From Negativicutes bacterium (lineage in GTDB: Bacteria > Bacillota > Negativicutes > JAGOZY01), in assembly GCA_017995975.1 (NCBI GenBank), contig JAGOHU010000001.1:1-49138 (forward strand): DNA of 49,138 nucleotides, read 5' to 3'. The notes below the pieces were generated by a model. It was not told the DNA's origin. It did no database searches and saw only the letters and a list, made by a program, of their open reading frames with translations. Position numbers and translations under genes: made by a program. Within the stretch, counting starts at the first letter, position 1. Each line of letters begins with the position of its first letter. Of the stretch, positions 3,219-49,138 are shown in pieces.

Positions 3219-3237
3219 AGCTTTTTGCTCCGTTTCT

Positions 3238-4094: not shown

Positions 4095-4532
4095 CTATTC
4101 TTCTTTCTTTTTATCAATCAAAGCATAAGTGAATATTGCGCTAGCAACCACTTCACCATCTACCCGCGCCTCAGATTTTACTTTACCAATTAATCCTTTG
4201 TACTTCATCATTTCGCTGGTGATAATCAATTGATCGCCTGGAACGACCGGCTTACGAAATCGTACTTCGTCAATACCTGCAAAAAAAGTACCCATCCCTT
4301 TATATTCGGGACAACACATAATAAATAACCCACCCACTTGACCCATGGCTTCCAAAATCAAAACTCCGGGCATCACTGGATTCTCTGGAAAATGACCATT
4401 GAAAAAAGGTTCATTCACACTCACATTTTTTATCCCCACTGCTTTTTTCATGGGTTCAAGCTCAATCACTCGATCTACCAAAAGAAATGGATAGCGATGA
4501 GGTAAACACTCTTTTATCTCCAAAATATTCAT
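4095..4532 (-). CDS. fabZ: 3-hydroxyacyl-ACP dehydratase FabZ
   Basis: LPHRYPFLLVDRV and FFNGHFP hot-dog dehydratase motifs. Start moved to ATG 4532, which has a GGAGG SD 8 nt upstream and overlaps the lpxC stop by 1 nt. The track start at 4547 is a TTG without an SD. Confidence 0.93.
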   Translation of the reverse strand: MNILEIKECLPHRYPFLLVDRVIELEPMKKAVGIKNVSVNEPFFNGHFPENPVMPGVLILEAMGQVGGLFIMCCPEYKGMGTFFAGIDEVRFRKPVVPGDQLIITSEMMKYKGLIGKVKSEARVDGEVVASAIFTYALIDKKKEE

Positions 4533-5374
4533 TATGACTTCCTCCAATATTCTTCTTGTAGCTGTTTGGCCAATTCGGCGTTCAGCGAATGAGCCGACTG
4601 AGAAGCGATAACATGACCTTTAATTCTAAATCCGCACAAAGCAAGATCACCAATCACATCTAAAATTTTATGTCGCACTAATTCATCTGGAAATCTTGGT
4701 TCATTTAAACTTTTATCTTTGTCATAAACTAAAGCATTTTCAAGGGATCCACCCAAAGCCAAATTGTGTGCTTTCAGGGCTTCTAACTCTTCGACAAATC
4801 CAATCGTTCGTGCTGGGGCAATTTCCTTAATTCCATTACCCTCAGCTAGCTCAATATCATAAAATTGAGTGCCTAGCTCCGGGTGTGAATTCATTGAAAT
4901 AAAGGAAATTCGATACCCTTCATAAGGTTGGATAGTAATGAAGCGATTTTTATCATACACTTGGAAAGATTTTTTCAAATCCAGGTATTGTACCGGCCCA
5001 TCTTGAGTTAATACTCCAACTTTTAAAATCAAATCACAATAAACTTTCGCGCTCCCATCCGCTGCTGGCGGCTCCGGTGAGTTCATCTCGATTTGGCAAT
5101 TATCAACTTCCATCAAGTAAAGAGCAGCCAAAATATGCTCCACTGTAAAAACTTTATTTTCTCCATTCCCCAAAGTAGTTGCCCGCTGAGTAGAAGTGAC
5201 CTGATCGGCTAGAGCAATAATCGTTGCCTGTTCTTCTAAATCAGACCGAATAAAGACAATCCCGGTATTAGGTTCGGCTGGAAAAAATTTGATTCTTACT
5301 GGCTTCCCCGAATGTAATCCAACTCCTTCGAAAACAAAGGATTCCTTGATTGTTTGTTGCCATTTTCTTTTCAT
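4532..5374 (-). CDS. lpxC: UDP-3-O-acyl-N-acetylglucosamine deacetylase
   Basis: 280 aa. The N-terminal region TIKESFVFEGVGLHSGKPV, TVEHILAAL and the C-terminal HK..D region are typical of LpxC. Confidence 0.94.
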   Translation of the reverse strand: MKRKWQQTIKESFVFEGVGLHSGKPVRIKFFPAEPNTGIVFIRSDLEEQATIIALADQVTSTQRATTLGNGENKVFTVEHILAALYLMEVDNCQIEMNSPEPPAADGSAKVYCDLILKVGVLTQDGPVQYLDLKKSFQVYDKNRFITIQPYEGYRISFISMNSHPELGTQFYDIELAEGNGIKEIAPARTIGFVEELEALKAHNLALGGSLENALVYDKDKSLNEPRFPDELVRHKILDVIGDLALCGFRIKGHVIASQSAHSLNAELAKQLQEEYWRKS

Positions 5375-5384
5375 AATACTCTCC

Positions 5385-6257
5385 CTAGCCAGTAGTTCTT
5401 TCTCGCCCTACTAATTTCCAACGATTATGTAGCCAAAACCATTCTTCCGGGTGTTGTCGAATATAATCTTCAATAATCCCCATTAACTCTATTGTAATCT
5501 CTTCTTGCGCCACATGGCGGTCCTTCGCTTGATCAACCATTTTTAGGGGATACACGGTGATATGATGCTTTCCATTGGGTAACCGATGAATAAAGATCGG
5601 GACAATGGGCGCCTTTTGAAGTCTTGCCAAAACCGATGGCCCTGGCTGACTTGAAGTTTCTCTGCCAAAAAAATTCACCCGAATATCGCTCTGAGCAGCA
5701 TATTGATCCATCAAAAGACCAACCGCTCTTCCTTCCTTCAAGTGCCGAACCATATCGCGGACTTCCGCCCTCATCGCCAAAATCATATTGGCTCCACCTC
5801 GTAGGTCCATAATGATTTGATTGACCTCTTTGTTATGCTGAGGTGTCATCACAGCAACCAGCGGATAGCCATACAAAGCCAGTCCGCCTCCCAACCACTC
5901 CCAATTCCCTTGATGGGCTGTAGCGATAATAACGCCTCGATTCATCGCTAAAGCTTCTTCTAGGTGCTCTTTGCCTTCAATTGAAATCCATTGGGATACA
6001 TTTTCCGGAGTCAATTTTGGCAAGGCTAATGCCTCCATAATTAGAACACCCATATTTTGGCAATTCACTTTTGCAAGTTGCCTTGCCCTTTTTTCATCGA
6101 TTTGAAGAGAAATCATCAAGTTCTCCAACATGATAAGTCGTCTTTTTTTAGGTAGAAACCACCAAAGGAGTGTGCCAAATCCCCCGCCCCACAAGCGCCA
6201 ACCCCGTGGCCCCATCCAAGTGGCAAAGGCACTTAATTTTTTCAATATAAAATACAT
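5385..6257 (-). CDS. lpxL: Lipid A late (secondary) acyltransferase, LpxL/HtrB family
   Basis: 290 aa with an N-terminal membrane anchor. HX4E acyltransferase motif in ATAHQGNWEW. Located between lpxD and lpxC. Confidence 0.75.
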   Translation of the reverse strand: MYFILKKLSAFATWMGPRGWRLWGGGFGTLLWWFLPKKRRLIMLENLMISLQIDEKRARQLAKVNCQNMGVLIMEALALPKLTPENVSQWISIEGKEHLEEALAMNRGVIIATAHQGNWEWLGGGLALYGYPLVAVMTPQHNKEVNQIIMDLRGGANMILAMRAEVRDMVRHLKEGRAVGLLMDQYAAQSDIRVNFFGRETSSQPGPSVLARLQKAPIVPIFIHRLPNGKHHITVYPLKMVDQAKDRHVAQEEITIELMGIIEDYIRQHPEEWFWLHNRWKLVGRERTTG

Positions 6258-6271
6258 ACATAATCCTCCGA

Positions 6272-7297
6272 CTACTTGGAACCACTTTTTTCTTCTAATT
6301 TCTGTTCCAAAACACGAATTCTTTTAATTAATTCTGGGACCTGCCGAAGGCCCGCTTCTTCTCGAAGCCATTCACGATGGGGACGTATTGGAAATCCTGC
6401 CATCACCGAGTCATCTGGTACATCATGATTGATCCCACTTCGTCCAGCAAACATGCAGCGATCCCCGATAGTCAAGTGTCCTTTTGTAGCAGTTTGGCCT
6501 CCAAATGTACAATGGTTACCAATTTTAGTGCTACCAGAAACTCCACAAAAAGCCACAAATAAACAATGTTCTCCAGTTTGTACGTTATGAGCCAAATGAA
6601 CTAGGTTATCAGTCTTTGTTCCATTACCAACAATCGTATCACCCAAAGTTCCTCGATCAATTGTTGTATTGGCACCAATTTCTACATCATTGCCAATTAG
6701 CACTCTACCAATCTGGGGCACTTTTTTATGAATTCCCTCTGAAAAAGTAAAACCAAATCCGTCAGCACCGATTACGGCTCCTGAATGAATAATCGTTCCA
6801 TTACCAACTTGGCAATATTCTCGGATTGTTACGTTTGGATAGATAATACAATCTTCACCAACTTCAGCTGAATCACCAACATAAGTATGGGGATAAAGAA
6901 TGGTTCCTTTTCCGACTTTCGCTTGAGGGCCCACATAAGCAAAAGCCATTACAATTGCCCCATCTGCAATCTCAGCAGTCGGGTCCACATGGGCTGCTTG
7001 ATGAATTCCTACTGAGCGGACAAGAGGAGGCTGAAATACTTGACTCAAAATAATAAAAGAAGCCCGTGGATTTTCCACTCGAATCAAGGTCAAGTCACAA
7101 TTCACTTTTGCATCAGAAGGTACCACCACAGCCCCAGCTTTTGCTAAATGCAAATAATCTAAATAAGGAGGAACCGCAAAAGTGATTTCAGTGCTTCCAG
7201 CCTCCTGTAAACCTGCTACTCCATCAATTCGCTTTGCCGAATCTCCTTCTACTTTTCCGCCAATCATTTTAGCCAGTTCTTCAACCGTAAAATTCAC
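6272..7297 (-). CDS. lpxD: UDP-3-O-acylglucosamine N-acyltransferase
   Basis: 341 aa. LpxD N-terminal domain followed by a long hexapeptide-repeat beta-helix. GTG start with GGAGG SD 7 nt upstream. Confidence 0.93.
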   Translation of the reverse strand: MNFTVEELAKMIGGKVEGDSAKRIDGVAGLQEAGSTEITFAVPPYLDYLHLAKAGAVVVPSDAKVNCDLTLIRVENPRASFIILSQVFQPPLVRSVGIHQAAHVDPTAEIADGAIVMAFAYVGPQAKVGKGTILYPHTYVGDSAEVGEDCIIYPNVTIREYCQVGNGTIIHSGAVIGADGFGFTFSEGIHKKVPQIGRVLIGNDVEIGANTTIDRGTLGDTIVGNGTKTDNLVHLAHNVQTGEHCLFVAFCGVSGSTKIGNHCTFGGQTATKGHLTIGDRCMFAGRSGINHDVPDDSVMAGFPIRPHREWLREEAGLRQVPELIKRIRVLEQKLEEKSGSK

Positions 7298-7315
7298 ATC
7301 AAGTCCTCCTATTTT

Positions 7316-7825
7316 CTATTGTTTTGGAGCCTCTTTCTTTTCTTCCGTTGCTTTGGCTTCCTCAGCTGGTTTGGGTTCTACTTTTCCGCCTAATTTAGCG
7401 ATTACATCATCTGTAATGTCGACACTTCCAACCACCACTTGAGCTTTTGTCAAAACAATTCCCATTTTCTTTTCTTGAGCAACTTCCGTAGAAGCTTTTT
7501 GAATTCCTGTAATAAATTCAATTCCAATTTGTTTTTCTAATTCTTGAGCTCGTTTCTGAAATTCTTGTTGTTTTGCCATAAATTCTTGTTGTGCTTTCGC
7601 TGGATCCATTTTTTGCAATTCTGCTTCCAAAGCCTTGCCCTCTTCTTGCAACACTTGTTGTTGAGCAGTCGCTTTTTGAATGATCTCAGCCCCAAATTTA
7701 GATTCCTTTTGGATTCTTTCATAATCAACAACTCCGACTTTTTGGGCCTCATTGCTACAGCCTGCTACCAACAGAGTTGCTCCGATCAAAGCAGCTCCCA
7801 TCCATTTCGTTAAATTCATTTTCAT
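7316..7825 (-). CDS. skp: OmpH/Skp-like periplasmic chaperone, lipoprotein form
   Basis: 169 aa. Signal peptide with lipobox LLVAGC, then a Gln/Glu/Lys-rich coiled-coil region typical of OmpH/Skp. Immediately upstream of lpxD, as in many diderms. Confidence 0.8.
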   Translation of the reverse strand: MKMNLTKWMGAALIGATLLVAGCSNEAQKVGVVDYERIQKESKFGAEIIQKATAQQQVLQEEGKALEAELQKMDPAKAQQEFMAKQQEFQKRAQELEKQIGIEFITGIQKASTEVAQEKKMGIVLTKAQVVVGSVDITDDVIAKLGGKVEPKPAEEAKATEEKKEAPKQ

Positions 7826-7896
7826 CCGTCTCCTTTTATTTACAGTATATCTTCCTAATTATACTAGAAAAGACTACTTTTAAGCAATTATTTCGT

Positions 7897-7923
7897 AAAA
7901 AAAAGCCAGACCCGAAGGACCTG
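7897..7923 (-). terminator. Putative intrinsic terminator after the second skp paralog
   Basis: Minus strand reads CAGGTCC-TTC-GGGTCTG (the stem includes two G-U pairs) followed by GC and T8. Confidence 0.5.
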
Positions 7924-7933
7924 ACCTTTTTCC

Positions 7934-8407
7934 TTACTTGCTATTTAAAATTTTAATGACTTCATCTGTAATATCACTACCACCATATAATACATCATCT
8001 TTAGCTACTACAACAGTGTATCCCTTTGAGTCAGCGGCCTTTTTTACAGCTCCACCAAGCTTTAGTTTCCATGCACTGGAAATATCGCTTTCACTTTTCT
8101 TTATTTTTTCAACCAACTGTTGCTCATATCTTTGTTTTTCATCAGCCGATAAAGCTGCAGCGTTTTTCTTAAAGTCTTCTTCCGCTTGCATCTGAACATC
8201 TTGGAATTGTTTCACCGCATCATTAAAATCGGTGGATTGAGAGCGTACTCGCTCCATATCTACTACCGCAACCGAACTGGCAGGAGCTGCCGAAGCTTGT
8301 CCAGTCATTGAGTTGGCGCCCATAATAAATACGCTTACTACAAAAATAGCAGCAACCGCCAAAGTAATCGTTTTCACATTTCTTGGATTTCTAAGCCACA
8401 TCATCAT
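7934..8407 (-). CDS. OmpH/Skp-like periplasmic chaperone, second paralog (signal peptide, no lipobox)
   Basis: OmpH-like coiled-coil sequence (FQDVQMQAEEDFKKNAAALSADEKQRYEQQLVEKIKK). Start placed at the ATG cluster 8 nt after GGAGG; the track ORF begins 18 nt further upstream at 8425. Confidence 0.75.
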   Translation of the reverse strand: MMMWLRNPRNVKTITLAVAAIFVVSVFIMGANSMTGQASAAPASSVAVVDMERVRSQSTDFNDAVKQFQDVQMQAEEDFKKNAAALSADEKQRYEQQLVEKIKKSESDISSAWKLKLGGAVKKAADSKGYTVVVAKDDVLYGGSDITDEVIKILNSK

Positions 8408-8449
8408 TATAAAATTCCTCCACATCTATTCTCCAATATTACTAGGATT

Positions 8450-8478
8450 ATTATACCTTGTTCTTTTTTGCCTCGCAA
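8450..8478 (-). promoter_or_regulatory. Sigma-70/SigA-type promoter upstream of the skp-skp-lpx genes
   Basis: Minus strand has TTGCGA (8478-8473), a 17-nt spacer, and TATAAT (8455-8450), about 40 nt upstream of the skp paralog start. Confidence 0.6.
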
Positions 8479-8537
8479 TTGATTTTACAAATTATTCCGC
8501 ATTTTAGCGTCCTATTTGTCTTAAAAATATAGGAAAG

Positions 8538-8566
8538 GGTTCTTGACCCTTTGTCAATAAAGAACC
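8538..8566 (-). terminator. Putative terminator hairpin after bamA
   Basis: GGTTC...TTGAC-AAAGG-GTCAA-GAACC hairpin on the minus strand, followed by the T-rich CTTTCCTATATTTTT. Confidence 0.45.
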
Positions 8567-8580
8567 ATCACAGAGTTTGA

Positions 8581-10416
8581 TTAGAAACTAGCGCCAAATC
8601 CAAAGCTAAAACGCCCTTTATCTTCCCCATTCCCCATCCCATAATCCAAACGTAATGGACCTAGTGGGGTATTCAAACGAATTCCAAGCCCATAAGTAGT
8701 TCGTAATTTAAAAGATCGTCCTGGGTCACTAAAAACAGCATTTGATGTACCGCCCCAAGCATCTCCTACTTCGCCGAAAGCAACAACTGAAACATATTTT
8801 TGGACTGGTACTCGGTATTCCAAGGTCGCAGCCAGCATTTTAGTCCCTCTAAATTGACCACCTTCAAAACCTCTGAGTACCGTATCGCCACCAACAGAAA
8901 GTAAATCCGATTCCGGTACATCATCACCAGTTTGTAAGCCTCCAAGAAAACGAACTGCGATGGTGTGCTCTGCTTTTCCAAACATCACAGGCCAATATTT
9001 ACGGGCATCCAGATTAAATTGGGTGTAATTAAAGTCCCCACTAATTACAGGTAAGCCTTGGGTCGCACTTAACGAAAAACGTTTCCCTTGAGTTGGCACA
9101 AAGTAATTATCTCGATCATCATAAATAAATCCGAGGCTAACATTGCTATAGCGACCAAAATTATCCGAAATATAATTAGGAACCGTTCGATAGTCTGTCC
9201 CACTTTGATGCTCACTATACTTGGTATCTCGAATTCCGAAGCCAACAAATGCTTTTTTGTATTCTCCGTAAGGCTGAGAAATTGTTACATCAAAGCCCCG
9301 GGCTTCTCGGTCGTACTCGGAGATTTTGTCTCCATCAGGACTTCGATCCACCCTTCTGCGCATGAGATCATAAACATTAAGACCAAGAGACATTTCTTTT
9401 TTGGTCAACCAAGGATGAACATAACTAAATTCGAAACCATGACGAAGTTTATTTTTAAAGTCCCCTTCGCCACCAAATTCATAACGCAATTTAATTTGGT
9501 CCGTAATTCCTAAGAAATTCTTGTCCCCAAATTCTGCAGATACGGAAAAACCATCGTCTTCATTGTAGCCGCCCCCTAAGCCAACTGAGCGACTAGGGCC
9601 TTCTTTGACTTCAATAGCATAAACAAATTGATTTGGTTCTCGTCCTGGCTGGAGATCCATCTTAACATCTTCAAAAATACCTAAATTGTTGAGACGACGA
9701 ATTGTATTTCGCGCATCTTCTGCTTTCAAAGGCTCACCTTTTTTTACTCGGATTTCTCGCAGAATTGCTTTATCTTTCGTTTTGTCATTCCCTTTGACCT
9801 GAATTTCTTCAATAACGCCTTCAACTACTTTGGCAGTTACCGTACCGTCCTCAAGCATTTGAATATCTGCCAGCCGGGCAAGAACATAACCATTCTTTTT
9901 ATAATGCTCTTCCACTGCCTGCAAATCGCCAGTCAGTCGATTCGTATTGATAACCACCCCTGGGGTGACTGTTGCAAGAGCTTCTAATTCCTCGGTTTTA
10001 TAAATGGTATTCCCAGTCAATTTCAATCCTTTAAATTTCGGATTTTCTTTGACCTCGTAAACCACTTCAGTCCCTTCAGGTACAATATTGTATTTCATTC
10101 GAGCCCCTTGGAAATAACCAGTGCTCAAAATCGCCTGAATATCTTTTCCAGATTGATCCGCTGTCCAAACACCGCCTGGACGACTCGCAATCACATCCAT
10201 AATTGATTTTTTCTCAATGCTTTGAAGTCCTTCAATATCAATTCGGGTGATTTTCTGCCCAACTGGTCCTTCCGCATCAACGGTCGCCTCAGCTGTTGCT
10301 ATAGGTGCTGGGGAAACGATTGGAGTTTCTCCGTAAGCAATCCCACCCGAATATCCCATTGCCACGCCTAATCCAAGCACACAGAGCATTTTCTTTACTC
10401 GATATTTTTTGCTCAA
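8581..10416 (-). CDS. bamA: Outer membrane protein assembly factor BamA (Omp85), short form
   Basis: 611 aa with a signal peptide. About 230 aa of POTRA-like repeats, room for about three. C-terminal Omp85 barrel ending in the aromatic signature GFGASF. TTG start with GGAGG SD. Confidence 0.9.
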   Translation of the reverse strand: MSKKYRVKKMLCVLGLGVAMGYSGGIAYGETPIVSPAPIATAEATVDAEGPVGQKITRIDIEGLQSIEKKSIMDVIASRPGGVWTADQSGKDIQAILSTGYFQGARMKYNIVPEGTEVVYEVKENPKFKGLKLTGNTIYKTEELEALATVTPGVVINTNRLTGDLQAVEEHYKKNGYVLARLADIQMLEDGTVTAKVVEGVIEEIQVKGNDKTKDKAILREIRVKKGEPLKAEDARNTIRRLNNLGIFEDVKMDLQPGREPNQFVYAIEVKEGPSRSVGLGGGYNEDDGFSVSAEFGDKNFLGITDQIKLRYEFGGEGDFKNKLRHGFEFSYVHPWLTKKEMSLGLNVYDLMRRRVDRSPDGDKISEYDREARGFDVTISQPYGEYKKAFVGFGIRDTKYSEHQSGTDYRTVPNYISDNFGRYSNVSLGFIYDDRDNYFVPTQGKRFSLSATQGLPVISGDFNYTQFNLDARKYWPVMFGKAEHTIAVRFLGGLQTGDDVPESDLLSVGGDTVLRGFEGGQFRGTKMLAATLEYRVPVQKYVSVVAFGEVGDAWGGTSNAVFSDPGRSFKLRTTYGLGIRLNTPLGPLRLDYGMGNGEDKGRFSFGFGASF

Positions 10417-10459
10417 GATAAATCCTCCCTATCCATGTCAAACTTTCAATTTAAAACTT

Positions 10460-10490
10460 AGATTCTTAATGGGTTGCCAAATAAGAATCT
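10460..10490 (-). promoter_or_regulatory. Hairpin between tamB and bamA (weak terminator or attenuator)
   Basis: Perfect 9-bp stem AGATTCTTA/TAAGAATCT with a 13-nt loop, followed by AAGTTTTAA. The U-tract is weak. Confidence 0.35.
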
Positions 10491-10538
10491 CCTTCTGATA
10501 CATAATACCACTTTCTCAAGTAGAACCAAAGTTTTTTT

Positions 10539-13500
10539 TTAAAATCTACCCCGAAAAAAGACTCGATATCGATTTTCTTTGTCCTCTCGTTCCCATTCGA
10601 CCGATATATTCCAATAACGATTAAAATCATATCGTAGGTTTGTGATACCATTTGCCAGATCCTCAAAAGAAAGTGCATTTGAGATAAAAACATTTTTCCC
10701 AATTGATTTTCCAACTCGAATTCCGTAATTGGCTTCAAATTTATTACGAAGACCTTCCGTGTTCTGTTGATTTGAAAAATGAAGTTGGGTTAAAACGACC
10801 TCATCTACCCCGAAGTTTGCCTGAGCAAATTTTTCCAGTCCAAAAAGTCCCTGAGCTTGAAGTCCCATTTCTAAAAGAGCTAACGCACCAGCCGAAGTTA
10901 GTTGTTGCCCTAGTCCATTTGGGTTATTATCAATTGAATTGGTTTTGAACAACAATAAGTTTCGGATTTCATCTTGACTCATTGCCGGTTCTGACGAAAG
11001 AACAAATTCCATTTGGGTAGCAATCCCTTTAGCTTGAAGGTTGATTTGAGTATTTGCCATTCGAGTTTGAGCACGCAGACTGATTTCTGGAATTAGTCCA
11101 GTAAAACCTCCGAAATTAGCTTTTCCTTCTAAAATATCAAATTGATTGTTAAAGTACCAAATTCTTCCACTATTCACTTCAAGTTGCCCCATTAAAGCAG
11201 GCTTTTGTATGGTACGTCGGATTCGCAATTTCCCTTGAGGTGAAATATCGTAGAAGACCGGGTCGTAGAACCTTACCTTTTGCCCAATATGAAGTTGGAT
11301 ATCCAAATCAGTCTCAGGTAAATAAAAAGCTTGAGAATCCTGTACGAAAAGACTAATCGGAACGCTAATCGTAACCCGATCTAAGCGAATATCCCCTTGT
11401 ACCTTCGGTTTAAGAACTCCAGAAACCAATTCCAATTTTCCGTTAATTTCACCTTTGTAATAAGGACTAGTCACTTCTAATTGTTGGGCTACTAAAGATG
11501 CACGATAATCACTCAATACAGTTCCAGCCAAACCGCCTTGACCAGACAAATTCAACTTCCCTTTCCCCATCTTTGCAGACCCTTGGCTAATCACAAAGGA
11601 TTCTCCTTTAAAGTCCAACGCTAATTGGATATTTTCAAGAGGTTCTTTCACCTTATCAAAGTGGATAATGCCGTTTTGAATTCCAAGAGTCCCGTTAATA
11701 TTCGGATGAGCCAAAGTTCCTTTAATGTGAAGCTGACCTGTTGTAGCTCCTTCAGCTTCTGTAATGAATGGGGTAATCGTTGGCAGGATGGCCAGATTTG
11801 CATTGTCTAGTCGCAAATTCAAATCCATGCTTTCGGTTCGGCCCGATTCTTTTTTCTCCAAGGCGGCTAACGGAATTTTTCCATCCAGGCTGGCTTGATA
11901 AATTCCTTTTACCAGTGACATTTGTTCGATCAAAATATTTTGATCTTTTAAAACAATCAAAGTTTGGAAATTGTCGAAAGCCACTCCTCCGAGTCCCCCA
12001 GGAGTAATATTACCAGAGAGGGCCACTTCAGGATTTTTTAAGGTACCACTTGCTTGACCCACAATCTGGAGCTTTCCTGTCAGAGGAATATCTTGATAAG
12101 CTAAGTCGGGTAATATTGAAGCATCTAAATCTCTACCACCGATCTGTATATCAATATTCCCTTTTGAATCAATACCCCCTTCAGCAGCCAAAAATCCCTC
12201 TGTTCCAATTTTCCCAGTTAAATTATCAATATCCCAGGCCGTACCATCTTTTGTAACATGAAATCTTACTTGGTCAAAGTGTTGTTTTCTGAAAGTTCCT
12301 TGGGAAATAAATCCTTTGATGTCGGTTTCAATATGACCAGGGCTCATGGTTACTTTTATATTTCCACTCAATAGCCCTTCCAGTTCAGGAACCGAGAGGG
12401 TGGCTAAAGGTAAGCTTTGACTGAGCTTGAGCTTCTCTGCAGTAATTTCGCCATAAATCATTCGTCTTGGTCCATTTGCATACCCTTGGAATAGTACCTT
12501 GCCCTCATCTCCTTGAGAAAAAGAAAATTCTGGGATTCGAAGCTCCACCTGATCGCCCGCTAAGATAAGATTCACATTTTCGATTTTCTGACCATTCATT
12601 TCGATCAACGGTGCCGCAAGTTGAGCATCAATTGTGTATTTATCTCCCTGCCCTTTGACGACTCCGCCAAAATGAACCAATCCACTTACTGGATAAGGCC
12701 ATTCCCAGCCAAGAGGCCGTTCGGAAAAGAACTGTCCTTCCGAAACGGTTACCTCATATCCACCTTTTTCATCGTACCACCCACTGGAGCTAAAATTCAT
12801 GCTCCAATTTTCAAAGCGGAAGCTTTTAAACTTCCAAAGACCATCTTTTCTTTCGTATTTGCCTGAGAGATGATCGATGAGAATCGAATTTTCTTTTGAA
12901 AGACCTGCACTGCCATTAGTCAATGAAATCTTCCCTTTAATTGAAGGATTAGCCAAATTTCCTTGAATAGTCAGTTGATTGGTTATATTCCCACTTAGAA
13001 ATATATTTTGAGGTAAAAAAGGCAAAGCCATTTCACCTCTAAAATTACTACTTTGGACTTCTAAAAAGCTATCAGATCCATCTAACGCCAACCAGCCTTT
13101 GATCTGGTGGGTTCTTTGGGAGGAACGAAAAGAGCGGATAAACTGATCATTTAAATTTAAAAGCGAAGTCGATGGATAGGCAATAAAATGATCACCGATC
13201 TTTCGAAAGTCGAGCCACCCAAATTGATGACTATCTCCGCCATATTGAATCAAACTGACCTCGTCAATCCCAAGGATACCGTCTTCTTTTAAAAGAAGTC
13301 TTCCCTTTATCGAATTAAAAGGTTGAGAGACAATCAGTCCATTTTCACCTACAAAGTCGATTGCTCCTTGCCAAGTACCTGCATTTTTTTGCAAGCTTCC
13401 TCGACCAGAAAAGCTTCCGCCAATTGGGTAGGCAGGAATAAATTCTTGAAAAGAAGCGGCTTCAATTTGGCTAGCTGTAAATTCCAATAGAGAGGAATTT

Positions 13501-15020
13501 ACCATCACCTCAAGGGATCCACCAGCTGCAAGCACATGGAGTTGAGTCGCAAATTCTTCTTTCGGAGCCCAAGCAAATTCTCCCGAAGCTTGGGTAATTG
13601 GAATACCCCGAATCTGCGCTTCTGAGAATTGTAACTCTCCATTGCCTCGAATTCCCTTTAACCCACCCGAAAAAGAAACTTCCCCAGACACACTGCCTTT
13701 TAGAGGAGATAAATCAGCTAAACCAAAATTCTTGGGAATTTGATCTAAGTAAATATGAGCTAAAACAAAATTCCCTTCACCCAATTGATCTTTCCAATTG
13801 AATCTCCCAGCTCCACTCAGCTCTCCGCTAAAAATTTGACCTTCGAAGTTCTTCAGTATAACCTCCGAAAGATCACCCTTGACTTCACTTGTAAAGTTCC
13901 CAATTGCTGCCTCTTGATAGACCAGATCTTTCACGCTCAGCTTACCATCCCCAATAGGTAGGTCCAGCGTACCGGTAATCTCAATATCTCCACTTACCAC
14001 TCCCGAAATCTCTTGGGCTTTGACCAGTGGGATGGCACCAAGTTGGAAACCTTCGGTCTGTAGGGTTAAATTTAATTTTTTCTCCCCTTGGATTTCTGCT
14101 TTACCCGAAATTACGAAAGGTTGACCATTCAAATTTCCTTTGATATTGGTGGCTTCAATTTCTTGATTTGTACCCGAAAGTTTACCATTCCAACCAGTTA
14201 GATGATAATCTTGCCACGAAATACCTGCATCTTGAAGCTCTCCTTCGCCTTCGACTAGCCAAGTTTGATCTTCCAAACGCTGAATTTCGACCCGATAATT
14301 CTTGGCCACCCCTGCCCAATTAGTAAGCTTAGGTTCCTGATTAGAAAGCCAAGCTAATGAACCATGGGTCAAACTCAAATCACTGCCCGAAACTTTAATT
14401 GTACCTTTTTCTTGATACCAAGAAAACTCAACTTGCCCTCGGTCTTTTTCTAAAACAAAATCACCAGTCCCACTAATCTGTCCGGTAGGGAAGATATGAA
14501 TCTGTCCATTTAGACCCATCTCTTTATTTACTAAATTTTGACGATTCACATAAATTTGCGCATTTTGAATCAGAAGAGAAAGAGTCACTTTTGTAGATTC
14601 AGTAGCAGTTTCTTGCCTCAACAAATCGCTCAGATTCCATTGGCCGGGCTTCAACTCAGTCACATAAACAAGAGGTGATTGGAGTGCTACTTGTTCTAGT
14701 GCTTCAACTCCAATTTGTCCAGTTATCAATTTCCAGTAGTTAAGGGTAACTCGAACTTGAGGAATTTCTGTCACGATTTTCCCATCTACTCCATAAAAGC
14801 GGACTCCTTCTAATTTAATCGCTGGTGGGAAAGTGATCCGCAACTGGTCAATTTCGATTTTTCCGTTCAAACTCTGTCCGGCTGTCTCTAATACAATTTG
14901 TTTAACTTTATTTTCTATGATTGTGTGATTGCTCTGCCACCAAAGAGCAGCTCCCAGTATGCTAACAAGCACAAAGGCTACAAAAAAAATAGAGAAACGC
15001 CGCACTTGATTAATCATCAT
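10539..15020 (-). CDS. tamB: TamB-like translocation and assembly module protein (DUF490/AsmA-like)
   Basis: 1493 aa. Single N-terminal TM anchor, then a very long beta-rich Gly/Ser/Asn-rich body. DUF490-like C-terminus ending RVFFRGRF. Immediately upstream of bamA. Confidence 0.85.
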   Translation of the reverse strand: MMINQVRRFSIFFVAFVLVSILGAALWWQSNHTIIENKVKQIVLETAGQSLNGKIEIDQLRITFPPAIKLEGVRFYGVDGKIVTEIPQVRVTLNYWKLITGQIGVEALEQVALQSPLVYVTELKPGQWNLSDLLRQETATESTKVTLSLLIQNAQIYVNRQNLVNKEMGLNGQIHIFPTGQISGTGDFVLEKDRGQVEFSWYQEKGTIKVSGSDLSLTHGSLAWLSNQEPKLTNWAGVAKNYRVEIQRLEDQTWLVEGEGELQDAGISWQDYHLTGWNGKLSGTNQEIEATNIKGNLNGQPFVISGKAEIQGEKKLNLTLQTEGFQLGAIPLVKAQEISGVVSGDIEITGTLDLPIGDGKLSVKDLVYQEAAIGNFTSEVKGDLSEVILKNFEGQIFSGELSGAGRFNWKDQLGEGNFVLAHIYLDQIPKNFGLADLSPLKGSVSGEVSFSGGLKGIRGNGELQFSEAQIRGIPITQASGEFAWAPKEEFATQLHVLAAGGSLEVMVNSSLLEFTASQIEAASFQEFIPAYPIGGSFSGRGSLQKNAGTWQGAIDFVGENGLIVSQPFNSIKGRLLLKEDGILGIDEVSLIQYGGDSHQFGWLDFRKIGDHFIAYPSTSLLNLNDQFIRSFRSSQRTHQIKGWLALDGSDSFLEVQSSNFRGEMALPFLPQNIFLSGNITNQLTIQGNLANPSIKGKISLTNGSAGLSKENSILIDHLSGKYERKDGLWKFKSFRFENWSMNFSSSGWYDEKGGYEVTVSEGQFFSERPLGWEWPYPVSGLVHFGGVVKGQGDKYTIDAQLAAPLIEMNGQKIENVNLILAGDQVELRIPEFSFSQGDEGKVLFQGYANGPRRMIYGEITAEKLKLSQSLPLATLSVPELEGLLSGNIKVTMSPGHIETDIKGFISQGTFRKQHFDQVRFHVTKDGTAWDIDNLTGKIGTEGFLAAEGGIDSKGNIDIQIGGRDLDASILPDLAYQDIPLTGKLQIVGQASGTLKNPEVALSGNITPGGLGGVAFDNFQTLIVLKDQNILIEQMSLVKGIYQASLDGKIPLAALEKKESGRTESMDLNLRLDNANLAILPTITPFITEAEGATTGQLHIKGTLAHPNINGTLGIQNGIIHFDKVKEPLENIQLALDFKGESFVISQGSAKMGKGKLNLSGQGGLAGTVLSDYRASLVAQQLEVTSPYYKGEINGKLELVSGVLKPKVQGDIRLDRVTISVPISLFVQDSQAFYLPETDLDIQLHIGQKVRFYDPVFYDISPQGKLRIRRTIQKPALMGQLEVNSGRIWYFNNQFDILEGKANFGGFTGLIPEISLRAQTRMANTQINLQAKGIATQMEFVLSSEPAMSQDEIRNLLLFKTNSIDNNPNGLGQQLTSAGALALLEMGLQAQGLFGLEKFAQANFGVDEVVLTQLHFSNQQNTEGLRNKFEANYGIRVGKSIGKNVFISNALSFEDLANGITNLRYDFNRYWNISVEWEREDKENRYRVFFRGRF

Positions 15021-15059
15021 ACGACATCCCTCACTTTTCCTTTTAACTAAAAAAATCTT

Positions 15060-16514
15060 TTATTCTGCTTGAAATAATATCTTCGTTTTTTCTGGATTTT
15101 CTTTTAATTCTTCGATTTTTTTATCAAGCATCTCACTAGGCAACGGAGTCCGTTCAAGTTCCTCAGCCGAGAGTGGTCTTTTTACACCAATTCCCATGGC
15201 TTTATCCAATTTAGCTCGGCTATTGTTATAGTCAAACAACGATGATACATAATTTGTTTGGGCATTGGTTAAAGCATTTTGAGAATCTAATACATCTAAA
15301 TTTGTCCCAACTCCAGCTTGATAACGAGCTTGAGCTATTTTATAATCTTCTTCTGCTTGAGAAATCGCAACCGAACTGGTCTGAATTCGTTCTCTTGCTT
15401 CTTGAAGGTTTAGCCAAGCTTGGCGAACTTCCAGGTCCACTCCCTGAATGGTTGTTTTGAGAGTTGACTCTGCTTTTTCCTGCTTAGCCATTGCTTCTCC
15501 TACTCGGCCACGGGTGTAAAAGCTGTCAAAAAGAGTTAATTTAACAGTGCCACCCACATTCCAACCAGTAGTTTCCCAACCCGGTCGATCCACATCCCCT
15601 TTATTGTACCCTGCCGAAACAGCCACAGTTGGATAATATCCTGCTCGAGCAGTCCGTACAGCCGCTTTGGCTGAGTCAATACTTGAGAAAGACTGATGAA
15701 TCTCAGGTCGATACAACTTCGCATAAGAAATACTTTCCTCTAGAGTCCGCTCATCTGGAGTAAATCCTAATGAATCTTTCAACACTAACGAGGTGCCCAT
15801 ATCTACCCAAATTAGATTGGCCAAACTTGCATTAGCCAAATCAAGGCTATTTTTCGCTTTGATCAGATTTTGTTTGGCGTTAGCCACTTCGACTTCTGAT
15901 CGAAGTACATCGGCTTTGGCTACTAGTCCAACTTCAAATCGTAATTTTGTATTTTTCAGGTGCTCTTCCATCCGAGCCAATGCTTCGTCTGCATTTTCTA
16001 CGGTTTTCTCTGCATAAAGTACCTGATAATAGGCTTGTGCTGTCTGCATGCGAAGTGATTGTTCCATCAATACCACTCCGTAAGTACCGCTATAATATCC
16101 CTCTTTGGCCTGAGTCACTTGTCCTTGGTTGGCTCCGCCTGAGTATAAAACCCAATTTAAATTTACTCCATTTGAAAATTGATTGGAATACACATCTTTT
16201 CGCAAAGTATTTGCATCACTATAAGAGCGAGTCTCCGAATGAGTAGCCCCTACGGTAGGACCATAAGAAGCTTTTGCTTGCTCCACTCTGCGTCGAGCAG
16301 CCTGACGATCCGCATCCATTCCATCCAGTTGAGGATTTCTGCTCAAAGTCATATCAATCGCATTTTCTAAAGTAATTTCCAAAGGTGCATTTTCTTTTTG
16401 TTCCACTCCGGAAGCATCCCATATTTTTTCTTCTGCTTTAGCCACATAATTTATTGACAACAGAGACCCCAGAATAGCCATAGCAAGGAGTTGTTGATAT
16501 TTTTTCTTGTTCAT
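15060..16514 (-). CDS. tolC: TolC-family outer membrane efflux/channel protein
   Basis: 484 aa with a signal peptide. Two OEP-type repeats with long alpha-helical heptad regions (LEITLENAIDMTLSRNPQL..., AQARYQAGVGTNLDVLDSQNAL). Confidence 0.88.
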   Translation of the reverse strand: MNKKKYQQLLAMAILGSLLSINYVAKAEEKIWDASGVEQKENAPLEITLENAIDMTLSRNPQLDGMDADRQAARRRVEQAKASYGPTVGATHSETRSYSDANTLRKDVYSNQFSNGVNLNWVLYSGGANQGQVTQAKEGYYSGTYGVVLMEQSLRMQTAQAYYQVLYAEKTVENADEALARMEEHLKNTKLRFEVGLVAKADVLRSEVEVANAKQNLIKAKNSLDLANASLANLIWVDMGTSLVLKDSLGFTPDERTLEESISYAKLYRPEIHQSFSSIDSAKAAVRTARAGYYPTVAVSAGYNKGDVDRPGWETTGWNVGGTVKLTLFDSFYTRGRVGEAMAKQEKAESTLKTTIQGVDLEVRQAWLNLQEARERIQTSSVAISQAEEDYKIAQARYQAGVGTNLDVLDSQNALTNAQTNYVSSLFDYNNSRAKLDKAMGIGVKRPLSAEELERTPLPSEMLDKKIEELKENPEKTKILFQAE

Positions 16515-45795: not shown

Positions 45796-46604
45796 TTCAT
45801 TTCCTCCTTCCAATAAGGAACTACTTGGCAAATTTCAGCTGACGGGACTGTTTGTTGTATTTTTTTTACAAATCGCGACAAGCTCAATTCTTCTTGATCC
45901 GCTTCAGTAAGTAACTCAAAAAGAGCTTCCCATTCACAAATTCCATTAATCATATGAATCTGTTTGGGCTGGTGACTTTCTAAGAAATTTACCAATCCTT
46001 CAACTTCATGAGCCGAATTCGAAATTCCTGGAACATAGTGAATCACCACTGCCGACTCAGTTGGGAGATTTTCAACTCGGGATAATCCCATTATTTTTTG
46101 AAGCTCCCCACGATAGCTAAACCAATGAACTTCTGGTAATTCTTCTGAAATGGGATTCTTCACTCGACTAGCAGCCACCCAATTTTGATTCTGCCAACAG
46201 GTTAAAGCCCCATAAGCTAGCGGAGGCAACGATTCTTCTCCTTTGGCTGAGCTATCAAAAGCTGATAAAGCATTCAAAATATATCCTTCAGGCAATACTG
46301 CACCTACCGCCGTCATAGGCAAAGGCAATATTTCAATTTCATCTTTTTTCCACAACATCGGCTTTCGGCTCGGCAACGAATACAAAACGCTGTCTTTATT
46401 CAAAGGCAAAAGTTCTTGAGGTTCTAACGGAGCAATCTTAATCCCTTTTCTACCTAATGCTCGATAGCCAGGAATATCATAAAGGCTTCCTTCTATATCT
46501 CCATAAAGAGGACGAGGATAGCCGACACTTTCAAACTTTGGAAGCTCTCTTCCTTTTTTTTCAGTCCCTTTTTTACTCGGACTTTTCTGTTGCTTGTTCT
46601 TCAT
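45792..46604 (-). CDS. Hypothetical protein with a Lys-rich N-terminal tail
   Basis: 270 aa from ATG 46604 (289 aa in the track ORF, from 46661). No family recognised. Translationally coupled to xth, and its 5' end overlaps the pth 3' tail. Confidence 0.6.
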   Translation of the reverse strand: MKNKQQKSPSKKGTEKKGRELPKFESVGYPRPLYGDIEGSLYDIPGYRALGRKGIKIAPLEPQELLPLNKDSVLYSLPSRKPMLWKKDEIEILPLPMTAVGAVLPEGYILNALSAFDSSAKGEESLPPLAYGALTCWQNQNWVAASRVKNPISEELPEVHWFSYRGELQKIMGLSRVENLPTESAVVIHYVPGISNSAHEVEGLVNFLESHQPKQIHMINGICEWEALFELLTEADQEELSLSRFVKKIQQTVPSAEICQVVPYWKEEMK

Positions 46605-47205
46605 CGTTCTTTTCTTTCCTTGCCTTTTTTTCTTCTTTTTTATTTCGTCGATGAATATCATTCATCACATTGCTCAGTTCTTCTTTCACAAACCGCTCTG
46701 CTGCCTCGGCGGCTAATCCAATCGCTTCTTTAAACAGAGGTGCCTCTTCTTCGGTGGGACGAGACAACACATAGTCTGGTACCTTCCAGCCCGTCGGCGG
46801 CCGTCCGATTCCCATCCGAATTCGGGGAAAATCCTCAGCTCCCAAGCGCTGGATAATTGAGGTCATTCCCCTTTGTCCACCGGATGAGCCATTTTTCCGA
46901 ATCCGTACTTGCCCAGCTGGCAAATCAAGATCATCATAAATAACAATCAAATCTTCTAAAGGAACCTTAAAAAAATGAAGCAATGGTTGTACCGCATCGC
47001 CACTTAGATTCATAAAAGTCTGAGGCATCACCAAAAGAACTTTTTCAGCACCAATACGAATCTCCCCAACACTAGCATTGTATTGATCTTTCCAATTAGT
47101 CACCTTAAACTTTTCTGCCAAAGCTTCGATCACCCAAAAGCCTGCATTATGCCTTGTATTCACATATTCTCTGCCCGGATTCCCCAAGCCTACGATTACT
47201 TTCAT
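46573..47205 (-). CDS. pth: Peptidyl-tRNA hydrolase with a charged C-terminal extension
   Basis: MKVIVGLGNPGREYVNTRHNAGF and the rest of the Pth core, followed by about 25 extra Lys/Glu-rich residues. Confidence 0.94.
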   Translation of the reverse strand: MKVIVGLGNPGREYVNTRHNAGFWVIEALAEKFKVTNWKDQYNASVGEIRIGAEKVLLVMPQTFMNLSGDAVQPLLHFFKVPLEDLIVIYDDLDLPAGQVRIRKNGSSGGQRGMTSIIQRLGAEDFPRIRMGIGRPPTGWKVPDYVLSRPTEEEAPLFKEAIGLAAEAAERFVKEELSNVMNDIHRRNKKEEKKARKEKNDEEQATEKSE

Positions 47206-47344
47206 TGATTACCCGCTCCTAAATATAAAATAAAACTCTACCTCTTATTGTCCCATAAATGAGAAAAAAAATCAGCAAATCTTTTCGACTCAATTTAGTT
47301 CACTCTTTTTTACCCTTTTATCTCGTAACAATTAATAATAGTTA

Positions 47345-47373
47345 TTGTTTTTGCTCTTTCTTTTTTGTATAAT
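47345..47373 (+). promoter_or_regulatory. SigA-type promoter of the Bfd-like gene
   Basis: TTGTTT (47345-47350), a 17-nt spacer ending in TG, and TATAAT (47368-47373), about 55 nt upstream of the ATG. Confidence 0.6.
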
Positions 47374-47426
47374 CAAAAAGTAGATTCGATTCTACCAAAT
47401 TATAAATATTATTGGAGGTATTCATT

Positions 47427-47600
47427 ATGGATAAAAGTACAACCGTATGTCATTGCTTTAGTGTAACTGTAGGTCAAATCGAAGATGCAGTCAAAGGTGG
47501 AGCAGAGACTCTTGAAGCAGTTCAAGAAGCAACTCAAGCTGGAACTGGTTGCGGAGCTTGCAAACCAGTCATCCAAGAAGTAATTGACTCTGTAAAATAG
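47427..47600 (+). CDS. Bfd-like [2Fe-2S]-binding domain protein
   Basis: 57 aa. The Cys pattern VCHCF...GTGCGAC matches the BFD-like 2Fe-2S domain. ATG 47427 follows GGAGG; the track ORF starts at TTG 47412 inside the SD. This is the only plus-strand gene. Confidence 0.8.
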   Translation: MDKSTTVCHCFSVTVGQIEDAVKGGAETLEAVQEATQAGTGCGACKPVIQEVIDSVK

Positions 47601-47644
47601 TAAATTTACTCCCACAACAGATCTTGCCTAATGTAAAAAAAATA

Positions 47645-47695
47645 AAAAACCTCCTAATATAGAGTAGAAAAACTACAATATGTTAGGAGGTTTTT
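47645..47695. terminator. Bidirectional intrinsic terminator between the convergent Bfd-like and secreted-protein genes
   Basis: AAAAACCTCCTAA...TTAGGAGGTTTTT. The core 8-bp stem CCTCCTAA/TTAGGAGG is extended by A/T pairs, with an A-run on the left and a T-run on the right. Confidence 0.75.
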
Positions 47696-47813
47696 TATTT
47701 GGAAGAAGAAATGATCTGTTACAACTTCGATATGTAAGGTTTCTTTGAAAACTCCGTCTTCGTAGCACTACCCACATTATAAGGACAAAAATATCACAAC
47801 TTCATGATTTCAA

Positions 47814-48356
47814 CTAATAAGCTTTGTCGATTAAATCTGGACTTAAAAATACTCCTGACCCTGGCTCGGAATACCAATTATTAAATCCATAGAATTGTGT
47901 CCACCCTATTTTTTTACTCTTATGATCTTTTGCCATAATCCACAAATCACTAGTTATTTTTATTTTGTTACTGTTCAACTGAACAGAAAATATCTTATCG
48001 AAATTCCCATAATCTGCCCAAACAGAATAGAATCCTTCGCCATCATAGTACAAAAAATAAATCGTACTATCTTCTGTTGAAATCTGTTTACTTTGATAAG
48101 GATAGGTATGAAGTTGAGACCCCATAGCAGTAGCTGTATTATCTTTTTTTAAAATAAAAGCAACCTCACTATCAGAAGACGGTTCTTGGTAGAAAATAAC
48201 ATCCATTTTAGGTTTCATCCATTTTTTCCCTGCAGTTATGTCAAAATTCACTTCTCCATTTAACTTATTTGGTATTATTAATTTGGCTGGTGGTGATGAC
48301 GCAAAAGAAACTGAAGCAAATATCATAACAACAAAGATCAAAAAGATTTTTTTCAA
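47814..48356 (-). CDS. Secreted hypothetical protein (AT-rich gene)
   Basis: Signal peptide KKIFLIFVVMIFASVSFASS, then an aromatic-rich, beta-looking sequence. No family recognised. Start either TTG 48356 or GTG 48374. By eye it is clearly more AT-rich than the flanking genes. Confidence 0.6.
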   Translation of the reverse strand: MKKIFLIFVVMIFASVSFASSPPAKLIIPNKLNGEVNFDITAGKKWMKPKMDVIFYQEPSSDSEVAFILKKDNTATAMGSQLHTYPYQSKQISTEDSTIYFLYYDGEGFYSVWADYGNFDKIFSVQLNSNKIKITSDLWIMAKDHKSKKIGWTQFYGFNNWYSEPGSGVFLSPDLIDKAY

Positions 48357-48389
48357 CTCACTCACTCCTCCCACTCTTAGGACACAGGG

Positions 48390-48489
48390 TCGTTTTTACC
48401 GTTGGGAATAGATTCAATCTTCGTTTCACTCGATTTCATCAAGGCTACGGTATCCCTCGTACTAGGACTTTTTCGTCACTTTGTTCCTT
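48390..48489. repeat. Copy 1 of a 100-nt near-identical direct repeat (candidate structured RNA element), just upstream of the secreted-protein gene on the minus strand
   Basis: Hand alignment to 48559-48658 gives 98/100 identical bases with a 169-nt offset. Internal complementary segments are listed in the findings. Confidence 0.85.
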
Positions 48490-48507
48490 GAAAAGTTGCA
48501 CACACAC

Positions 48508-48548
48508 ACAAAAGCCCACTCCAAACTTTCGTTCCGAGTGGGCTTTTT
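48508..48548. terminator. Strong hairpin terminator between the two repeat copies
   Basis: GCCCACTC (48514-48521) pairs with GAGTGGGC (48536-48543), with an inner AAC-GAAA-GTT extension. On the minus strand it is followed by TTTTG(TG)n; on the plus strand by TTTTTAT. Confidence 0.75.
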
Positions 48549-48558
48549 ATAGATTTAC

Positions 48559-48658
48559 TCGTTTGTACCGTTGGGACTAGATTCAATCTTCGTTTCACTC
48601 GATTTCATCAAGGCTACGGTATCCCTCGTACTAGGACTTTTTCGTCACTTTGTTCCTT
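48559..48658. repeat. Copy 2 of the 100-nt direct repeat, lying between the prs stop and the hairpin terminator
   Basis: Differs from copy 1 at only two positions (T/G in the gtttNta segment and A/C in the gggaNtag segment). Confidence 0.85.
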
Positions 48659-48674
48659 AAAGTCCTGTACTCGT

Positions 48675-49138
48675 TTAGCACCACAATTTTCCTTGTTTGA
48701 TTGTTTTTTCATCAAAGAGACAACTGACCGAGTAATTTTTCGAGATTCGAAGGATTGTTTCGCCAAAGAGAGGTGCAAGGGAAATAACTTTAATTTTTTC
48801 ATGCATTTTCTCTTCTGGTACTGGGATCGAATCACTCACTACTACTTCTTTGAGAGCCGAGTCAGCAATTCGTTGAATCGCCGGGTCGCTAAAGACCGGG
48901 TGAGTACAAGCTGCATAGATATCTTTTGCTCCAAATTTTTTGAGTGCATTTGCTCCCTCAGTGAGAGAACCGGCGGTGTCAATAATATCGTCAACGATAA
49001 TGACATTTTTACCTTCTACAGAACCAATGATATTCATCACTTCTGCAACCCCAGGCATAGGTCGTCGTTTTTCAATAATTGCAATTGGCGCTTCGAGGAG
49101 ATCAGCCATTTGTCTAGCTCGATTGACTCCGCCAAGGT
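48675..49138 (-). CDS. prs: Ribose-phosphate pyrophosphokinase, C-terminal part (5' end outside the window)
   Basis: The frame stays open to the window edge (...LGGVNRARQMADLLEAPIAIIEKRRP...). PRPP-binding loop IIVDDIIDTAGS. C-terminus SVSCLF plus about 11 extra residues. Confidence 0.93.
   Translation of the reverse strand, partial: LGGVNRARQMADLLEAPIAIIEKRRPMPGVAEVMNIIGSVEGKNVIIVDDIIDTAGSLTEGANALKKFGAKDIYAACTHPVFSDPAIQRIADSALKEVVVSDSIPVPEEKMHEKIKVISLAPLFGETILRISKNYSVSCLFDEKTIKQGKLWC

Follow-up and report, generated by a model that had tools for sequence, protein, structure and literature searches.

Small structured interspersed repeats have been well described in a few cultured groups of bacteria, namely the enterobacterial repetitive extragenic palindromes (REPs), the pneumococcal BOX and RUP elements and the Bacillus cereus bcr families. 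BOX elements have a modular build, boxA-(boxB)n-boxC. The bcr1 element of the Bacillus cereus group is ~155 nt long, is dispersed in the genome, and consists of two independent stem-loops with compensatory changes and 5-bp flanking direct repeats; it is transcribed (PMC3184786). The BOX element of Streptococcus pneumoniae has a predicted RNA structure and is co-transcribed (PMC3184786). The part of the REP literature drawn on here describes a G+C-rich palindrome of 20–40 bp with an unpaired GTAG/CGTC tag at one end and a high copy number, located mostly downstream of genes, between convergent or unidirectional open reading frames (ORFs), and plausibly active as an RNA hairpin (PMC3733652). A full-text literature search found no paper on repetitive extragenic elements in Negativicutes. 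Here we analyze two near-identical repeat copies, A1 and A2, located next to prs in 49,138 nt of contig JAGOHU010000001.1 (the window) from an uncultured sewage Negativicutes. The best explanation, to which we assign a probability of roughly 60%, is that the two copies are members of a lineage-specific, probably mobile or recombining, co-transcribed multi-copy family of intergenic repeats.

A repeat search of the window identifies a direct-repeat pair at 48390–48492 (A1) and 48559–48661 (A2), with a length of 103 nt, an identity of 97%, and a spacing of 169 nt. BLAST gives 98 identical positions out of 100 for the slightly shorter segments in which an earlier note on this DNA had recognized the pair, as that note had counted. 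Both copies are read on the minus strand. Specifically, A2 lies in the prs 3’ untranslated region (UTR), between the prs stop codon and a GC-rich hairpin, while A1 lies between that hairpin and the Shine-Dalgarno (SD) sequence of an orphan gene. The order of prs stop, A2, hairpin, (TG)6, A1, and SD is the one originally proposed; the SD (GGGAGGAG, 48365–48372) is, however, 17 nt past A1 on the minus strand rather than 12 nt. The 66-nt spacer between the copies is unique sequence and consists of the hairpin with its A- and T-tracts and a dinucleotide run at 48498–48509, which reads (CA)6 on the plus strand and (TG)6 on the minus strand, in the interval between hairpin and A1. The hairpin (48510–48547), found as an inverted repeat and in folds, has 17-nt arms that are 88% complementary and is flanked by an A-tract and a T-tract. 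It is likely the bidirectional intrinsic terminator of prs and was missed by a simple terminator scan owing to an internal mismatch. This terminator hairpin is locus-specific and lies outside the repeat family. The two-copy arrangement is base-for-base the same in at least six independent sewage assemblies (L001, L002, L004, L005, L082, and L084) from different samples, and the pair is therefore not an assembly artefact.

Exact and BLAST searches reveal no third copy in the window. Diverged copies are present at other loci and in related species. The first lead was a permissive BLAST of the locus against relatives, which weakly matched the spacer between sodA and pth in L079 (88 nt, 65%). Inspection identified two diverged copies in that spacer (e1 and e2) and two in tandem repeats after prs in L076. 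A covariance model, R1, was built from seven sequences. In the window, R1 matches A2 (48557–48631, 90.3 bits) and A1 (48388–48462, 85.2 bits) and nothing else, the next best match scoring 8.8 bits. Among sequences on which it was not trained, R1 finds five matches of 25–59 bits in L082, from the same species, at 1762–1701, 1652–1578, 1500–1434, and 1303–1230 on the minus strand and at 1124–1185 on the plus strand, and one of 52 bits in L079 at 3876–3951 (e3), after an Exo_endo_phos gene. With ~80 kb of the window species and ~14 kb of the two element-bearing relatives covered, the tally is 13 copies: ~8 in the window species, at two loci 8 kb apart, and five in two related species whose pth genes are 81–83% identical (three in L079 and two in L076). 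An interspersed repeat family thus exists, with diverged copies at non-orthologous intergenic sites in the same and in related genomes. The earlier note had held that dispersed copies without covariation would point to a mere repeat; dispersed copies are found, but they covary.

The unit is ~110–115 nt long, has a G+C content of 39–59%, and contains two hairpins and no ORF. Read on the minus strand, most members start with the head GGCTTGACTGC, which is missing from A1 and A2. The first hairpin, P0, is simple, with an 8-bp stem and a loop of the form AAGGAAC...GTGAC, and the linker GTAGGAAACC joins it to the main hairpin. The main hairpin is composed of a basal stem of 5–6 bp (P1), an irregular helix, a tip stem of 4–5 bp (P3), and a tip of variable length. 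The irregular helix in the middle is almost invariant (GCCUUGAUGA / GAAUCUAGUC) and runs in the order G-C, C·U, C-G, U-A, U·U, G-C, A-U, and U-A or C-G, followed by a symmetric tandem G·A. In most copies, a variable GYAG-like tetranucleotide (GTAG, GCAG, or GTAC) is located 6–7 nt 5’ of the main hairpin.

Both window copies adopt this architecture. The main hairpin of A2 (48566–48621) has UACCGU/ACGGUA as P1, GCCUUGAU/AUCUAGUC with C·U, U·U, and tandem G·A as the irregular helix, AAUC/GAUU as P3, and a variable tip. The main hairpin of A1 (48397–48452) is built in the same way, with one C·U in place of the family C-G at the CUAUUC position. P0 of A2 (48634–48665) pairs GGACUUU with AAAGUCC around the loop AAGGAACAAAGUGACGA in the predicted fold. 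P0 of A1 (48467–48496), identified by sequence and alignment, pairs ACUUUU with AAAAGU, and its 5’ strand derives from a different flank than in A2.

The two-hairpin structure is conserved with covariation. P1 and P3 covary freely, as in the RNAalifold example of UACCGU/ACGGUA versus ACCGGC/GCCGGU, and all eight pairs of P0 show double-sided changes across the family. When 10 copies are aligned by sequence alone with MAFFT, standard pairs fill 92.1% of the pair cells, and 21 of the 25 pairs have changed on both sides. None of 500 shuffles reaches the observed value, and sliding the partners by 1–3 columns reduces pairing to 31–45%. Across 12 distinct copies aligned by fitting to the model, pairing reaches 94.3%, and 13 of the 17 pairs show changes on both sides. 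The stems originally proposed from the two window copies, ACTTT/AAAGT and TACCGT/ACGGTA enclosing GAT-GA-AATC...GATT-GA-ATC, are thus borne out by 10–12 diverged members, in which the base pairs are maintained by compensatory substitutions. G·U pairs outnumber A·C pairs by 7:1, indicating that the fold is selected on the minus strand of the window, either as RNA or as folded single-stranded DNA; this agrees with the strand on which the copies had first been read. The thermodynamic stability of single copies is no better than that of shuffled controls, with z scores of +0.30 and −1.47 on the minus strand and +1.47 and +0.51 on the plus strand, and the fold of a larger region is significant solely through the terminator hairpin. 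A coding function was considered for a small ORF (MMKSSETK...) in the repeat and rejected: the frame is lost in L076, and neither difference between the copies is synonymous.

The family appears confined to this lineage in the sequences searched. Across 762 kb from unrelated genomes, R1 has no match at E<=1, and its maximum on viral loci pre-selected for the motif is 19.9 bits; the 120 viral-contig loci that a motif scan had produced are chance matches by model score. There are no copies in ~58 kb of four relatives at 70–78% pth identity, nor in the 10 kb past the other end of the window. Exact 20-mers have no match in viral contigs and none in a genome collection in which the species and its relatives are absent, a check with pth returning distant phyla only (<=49% identity). 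A 20-mer match in a JGI metagenome (L075) is due to chance, being inside a high-GC dapA-like ORF. BLAST of 47600–48700 against plasmids and phages returns nothing meaningful. Rfam 15 has no match to the whole window at the gathering score and none credible at E<=10 to 48250–48800 on both strands. Other family members have no Rfam match at E<=1.

The largest group of copies, also from the window species, is located ~8 kb outside the window on its prs side. Here, ~6 units, five on one strand and one on the other, occupy a 1.09-kb spacer between convergent genes for LysR and a 184-aa hypothetical protein (L082). The array includes three truncated 5’-half units in tandem, joined at CCTTAATGA|GGCTTGACT, and no promoters or terminators of their own were recognized in the array units. 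In L076 (83% pth identity), the 677-nt spacer after prs (3040–3717) consists of tandem units of ~172–180 nt, each of which contains TCGCTATAATCTGGGGG, a −10-like box, and one family element. The second of these elements (L076c2) carries deletions in P0 and P3 and has lost half of P3. The unit head GGCTTGACT in L079e1, L079e3, and L082a–e nearly duplicates GCCTTGATG, which forms the 5’ strand of the invariant helix, and could pair alternatively with the 3’ strand AGTCAAAG. Such pairing, which is not available to the headless A1 and A2, is a possible source of array slippage or of an alternative fold.

Family sites are diverse. Copies are found after prs (A2 and L076), after the 184-aa hypothetical gene, and after the LysR gene; between Exo_endo_phos and PAP2 genes; and before sodA, a PNPOx-like gene, and the orphan gene. 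The adjoining genes are mutually unrelated and have no common function or position, and there is no paralogy between the orphan and the 184-aa gene beside the array. Copies form arrays, include truncated units, and also occupy a site at which relatives have none. Specifically, the site after prs is empty in L077 and L078, where the prs terminator directly follows the stop codon. L079e3 fills the operon spacer between Exo_endo_phos and PAP2, and the same spacer measures 15–25 nt in L001, L076, L077, L078, and L207. All copies have the sense orientation relative to the adjacent transcription unit; at five informative loci, this has a chance probability of ~0.03.

A perfect 9-nt direct repeat, TACTCGTTT (AAACGAGTA on the minus strand), lies on either side of A2. 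The left copy (48668–48676) overlaps the prs stop codon, and the first 6 nt of the right copy (48556–48564) coincide with the end of the repeat unit. TACTCGTTT has three matches in the window compared with 0.29 expected, and two of them flank A2. With A2 and one 9-nt repeat removed, the distance from the prs stop to the terminator shrinks to ~17 nt, which is the arrangement in relatives. The flanks of L079e3, GCTTGACTG and GCTTGGCTG, match at 8 of 9 nt. A2 is probably a recent insertion into the interval between the stop codon and the terminator of prs, its source being A1 or a shared master copy; this would account for both the 97–98% identity of the two copies and the 9-nt flanking repeat.

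Several observations weigh against a mobile repeat. Six of the nine nucleotides of the A2 flanking repeat overlap the element end, and the repeat may reflect microhomology rather than target-site duplication. Similarly, GCTTGACT recurs at the start of several units, where it is element sequence and not a duplication. There are no terminal inverted repeats between the ends of A1 or of A2; the partial complementarity that other members show between their 5’ GGCTTGACT and the internal AGTCAAAG of the main hairpin does not amount to a terminal repeat. No transposase or REP-associated tyrosine transposase (RAYT) is found among the called genes of the loci around window proteins, to which the search was confined. 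Paired elements recur at near-equal spacings of 169, 172, and 170 nt (window 48388–48631, L076 3255–3499, and L079 1076–1320, respectively), while the spacers between them are unrelated in sequence, a regularity for which the repeat model does not account. All 13 copies lie within ~10 kb of prs or pth in the sequence covered, and dispersal across the genome is not shown. Finally, the conservation of the irregular helix and the consistent sense orientation fit a selected RNA function as well.

These last points lead to a possible, though not the expected, alternative, in which the element is a selected structured RNA module whose spread is secondary. It would act as a protein-binding, processing, or stabilizing UTR signal, the array would be a protein sponge, and the window pair would be a 3’-UTR module for prs and a 5’-leader module for the orphan gene. 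The two explanations overlap and differ in what maintains the copies, selection or selfish spread. The strong covariation of both hairpins, the near-invariant helix with its conserved non-canonical pairs, the common sense orientation, and the paired elements 169–172 nt apart in three species all speak for selection. AAGGAA/AGGA motifs similar to CsrA or anti-SD targets also occur in the P0 loops and linkers. The excess of G·U over A·C pairs indicates a single folded strand, but G·T wobbles are tolerated in folded single-stranded DNA as well. On the other hand, the main hairpin has no 3’ strand in truncated units, the deletion in L076c2 takes half of P3, presence or absence varies at orthologous sites, some relatives do without the element, neighbouring genes are unrelated, and the folding energy is no better than that of shuffles. 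The more specific form of this alternative, an undescribed protein-binding RNA module kept by selection and not by selfish spread alone, with the helix as the site of an RNA-binding protein or RNase, is rather doubtful. In that form, the GGA-rich P0 loop and linker in arrays would serve as a sponge or as a processing or stability signal, and the dimers spaced by ~170 nt downstream of prs would be a functional unit. What keeps the selected-RNA explanation alive is the location of all copies near prs and pth, the pairs spaced by 169–172 nt, and the extreme conservation of the helix.

The structured-repeat explanation is closest in kind to bcr1, which, by analogy and not by sequence homology, is the nearest described counterpart. 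Both are small non-coding Bacillota repeats with two covarying stem-loops, flanking direct repeats, and no internal transposase. Other than that, the unit here is shorter (~110–115 nt), its 13 copies are clustered and partly in tandem arrays, and its flanking repeats are 9 nt long and ambiguous. bcr1 is transcribed with its neighbours; for the family described here, transcription is predicted, with indirect support only from the sense orientation and the G·U bias. The L082 array with its repeated 5’-half units behaves as a modular array, reminiscent of BOX, but the sequence and the modules are unlike those of BOX, and the window copies are single complete units split by a unique spacer.

REPs and bacterial interspersed mosaic elements share with the family an imperfect palindrome that folds as a single strand, a placement downstream of genes, and a GYAG-like tetranucleotide. 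In contrast to REPs, which usually form inverted dimers and are mobilized by RAYTs, the unit here is ~110 nt long with two unlike hairpins and a G+C content of 43–47%, its copies are in direct orientation, and no RAYT is seen in the loci examined. The GTAG-like tag here is variable and apart from the stem, and the element does not fall within the definition of a REP. Miniature inverted-repeat transposable elements (MITEs) such as RUP, Correia, and ERIC are also ~100–150 nt long, intergenic, and without an ORF, and show presence or absence at orthologous sites and possible target-site duplications. Unlike them, the window copies have no terminal inverted repeats, the duplication is not secure, and no parent insertion sequence is known. 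The family has no sequence homology to bcr1, BOX, or REP, and several defining features of REPs and MITEs are missing from it.

The order of element, terminator, element, and SD on the coding strand had led the earlier note to propose a tandem riboswitch, in which the copies are aptamers, CGAGUG/CACUCG pairing controls the terminator, and UCCCA/UGGGA pairing masks the SD. Tandem riboswitches, such as that for glycine, likewise have two structured units in series on a transcript with a terminator and an SD nearby, and the element structure is conserved here. However, CGAGTG sits in the variable tip of the main hairpin while its partner CACTCG belongs to the locus-specific terminator, and the positions of TCCCA, as well as those of an alternative or pseudoknot pairing suggested between GGGA and TCCC, are not conserved in other members. 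Most members lie after genes or between convergent genes, where they have no terminator or SD partner; others lie in an operon spacer or in arrays, and some are truncated. Associated genes share no function, and the downstream gene here is a species-specific orphan. There is no credible Rfam match at E<=10. The conserved part of the element runs as one unbroken irregular helix, in place of a ligand pocket at a junction of several helices, and appears to resemble a protein-recognition hairpin. We consider a ligand-sensing cis-regulator highly improbable.

The earlier note had also offered a plus-strand small RNA (sRNA) running from A1 to the hairpin and TTTTT, which would be cis-antisense to the orphan leader and trans-antisense to A2 in the prs 3’ UTR. 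This layout, with direct repeats flanking a bidirectional terminator, resembles convergent type I toxin-antitoxin systems, and the hairpin has a plus-strand T-tract too. However, no σ70-like promoter is recognized upstream on the plus strand, the G·U/A·C ratio puts the selected fold on the minus strand, and the fold z scores on the plus strand are positive. The geometry is missing at other family loci, and the frame of the small repeat ORF is not conserved across members. A plus-strand sRNA is therefore most improbable.

Other classes were considered and rejected. A type III toxin-antitoxin system is not supported, as there is no ToxN/AbiQ-type gene downstream, where the encoded protein is signal-peptide-like, with no Pfam match above cut-off and no homologues outside its own cluster. 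Members have no common R’/R’’ consensus of integron attC sites. For the template and variable repeats of a diversity-generating retroelement, there is neither a reverse transcriptase nor a copy inside a gene. The symmetric 2×2 G·A loop without a 3-nt bulge is not a K-turn.

The adjacency of the copies and their identity of 97–98% would also be expected from a neutral one-off local duplication of meaningless spacer DNA, and one assembly has a single hybrid copy. Yet diverged two-hairpin units with compensatory changes at other loci and in other species refute this as a complete explanation, and we regard it as very unlikely. A recent event of local copying still belongs to the favoured explanation. 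The hybrid copy is seen at 8686–8855 in L003 and L083, which are identical here, where 169 nt including the terminator are gone. It is expected from recombination between A1 and A2 and equally from a de Bruijn assembler that skips an A-B-A loop. Flanking single-nucleotide polymorphism levels do not discriminate between a real single-copy allele and an assembly artefact. We treat the single-copy allele as putative: the pattern is exactly that of an assembler skip, and another assembly (L085, 7850–7949) has a 100-N gap inside the repeat, in the same place. As the repeat disturbs short-read assembly, copy-number variation is unreadable from these assemblies.

If the element is a structured interspersed repeat, it would spread in a REP-, BOX-, bcr1-, or MITE-like manner, by copy-insertion into intergenic spacers combined with local duplication or recombination. 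The invariant irregular helix would be the recognition site of a trans-acting protein, a candidate being a transposase or nuclease that acts on folded single-stranded DNA, or an RNA-binding protein. Copies would probably be co-transcribed with neighbouring genes, and the prs 3’ UTR and the leader of the species-specific orphan gene, which A1 would form, would both contain hairpins. If expression is affected, the effect would be like that of REP or BOX elements, namely transcript stabilization or processing, or deletion of the terminator by A1/A2 recombination; ligand sensing is not expected. Such recombination, to which a pair bracketing the prs terminator would be prone, would fuse the species-specific secreted-protein gene to the prs operon.

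The family yields a motif of two hairpins, both supported by covariation, in which a non-canonical helix is unusually conserved, and this helix offers a handle for finding the partner protein, whether transposase or RNA-binding protein. For annotation, the locus illustrates that insertion of a repeat on either side of a terminator can mimic the layout of a tandem riboswitch. The repeat pair also explains the breakage or collapse of the locus in metagenome assemblies.

The 3’ part of prs (ribose-phosphate pyrophosphokinase) occupies 48675–49138 on the minus strand as an ORF cut by the window end, with its stop codon at 48675–48677. Its identity is given by the full-length gene in L001, which has Pfam Pribosyltran_N and Pribosyl_synth domains. 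The orphan gene, an ORF at 47814–48365 on the minus strand, encodes 183 aa as called, with a signal-peptide-like N-terminus; TTG at 48354–48356 is better spaced from the SD as a start and gives 180 aa. Among 5.8 billion proteins, no orphan homologues are found outside its own 90% cluster, and Pfam has nothing above cut-off, only a sub-threshold CBM46 match. No σ70-like promoter is recognized upstream of the gene. Without a recognizable promoter of its own, the orphan gene would depend on transcription that passes the prs terminator or starts at an unrecognized promoter.

The interval between prs and pth (window 47206–48677) is a variable spot in the lineage, as seen by comparison with L076–L079 and L207. 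Relatives at 70–83% pth identity have other genes between prs and pth: a convergent sodA in L077, L078, and L207, and PNPOx-like, hypothetical, and sodA genes in L076. In place of this sodA set, the window species has the orphan secreted-protein gene and a gene for a 57-aa Fer2_BFD protein. Between the orphan and the convergent Fer2_BFD gene, an inverted repeat at 47640–47700 has 28-nt arms that are 89% complementary, with A- and T-tracts, and is likely a bidirectional terminator. A Logan contig from a near-identical strain (L081, 1–131, corresponding to window 48337–48461) shows 10 differences from the window, nine of them transitions. All fall in the first 125 nt, which comprise A1, its flank, the start codon (GTG>ATG), and the signal peptide, and there are none in the next 1230 nt. 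The contig starts with an adapter-like CCGATCT, and the segment may be divergent or recombinant or a contig-end artefact.

Sewage metagenomes contain the window species in abundance, with 288 index blocks for pth. Its Pth (210 aa) has a Lys/Glu-rich C-terminal extension of ~25 aa, which is similar in relatives (199–221 aa). At 46573–46661, the 3’ end of pth overlaps the start of the next gene, which encodes a Pfam-less protein of 270–289 aa, by up to 89 nt. At the far end of the window, positions 1–16500 on the minus strand contain a diderm envelope cluster that encodes LpxB, LpxI, LpxA, FabZ, LpxC, LpxD, two OmpH proteins, and BamA-like and TamB-like proteins.

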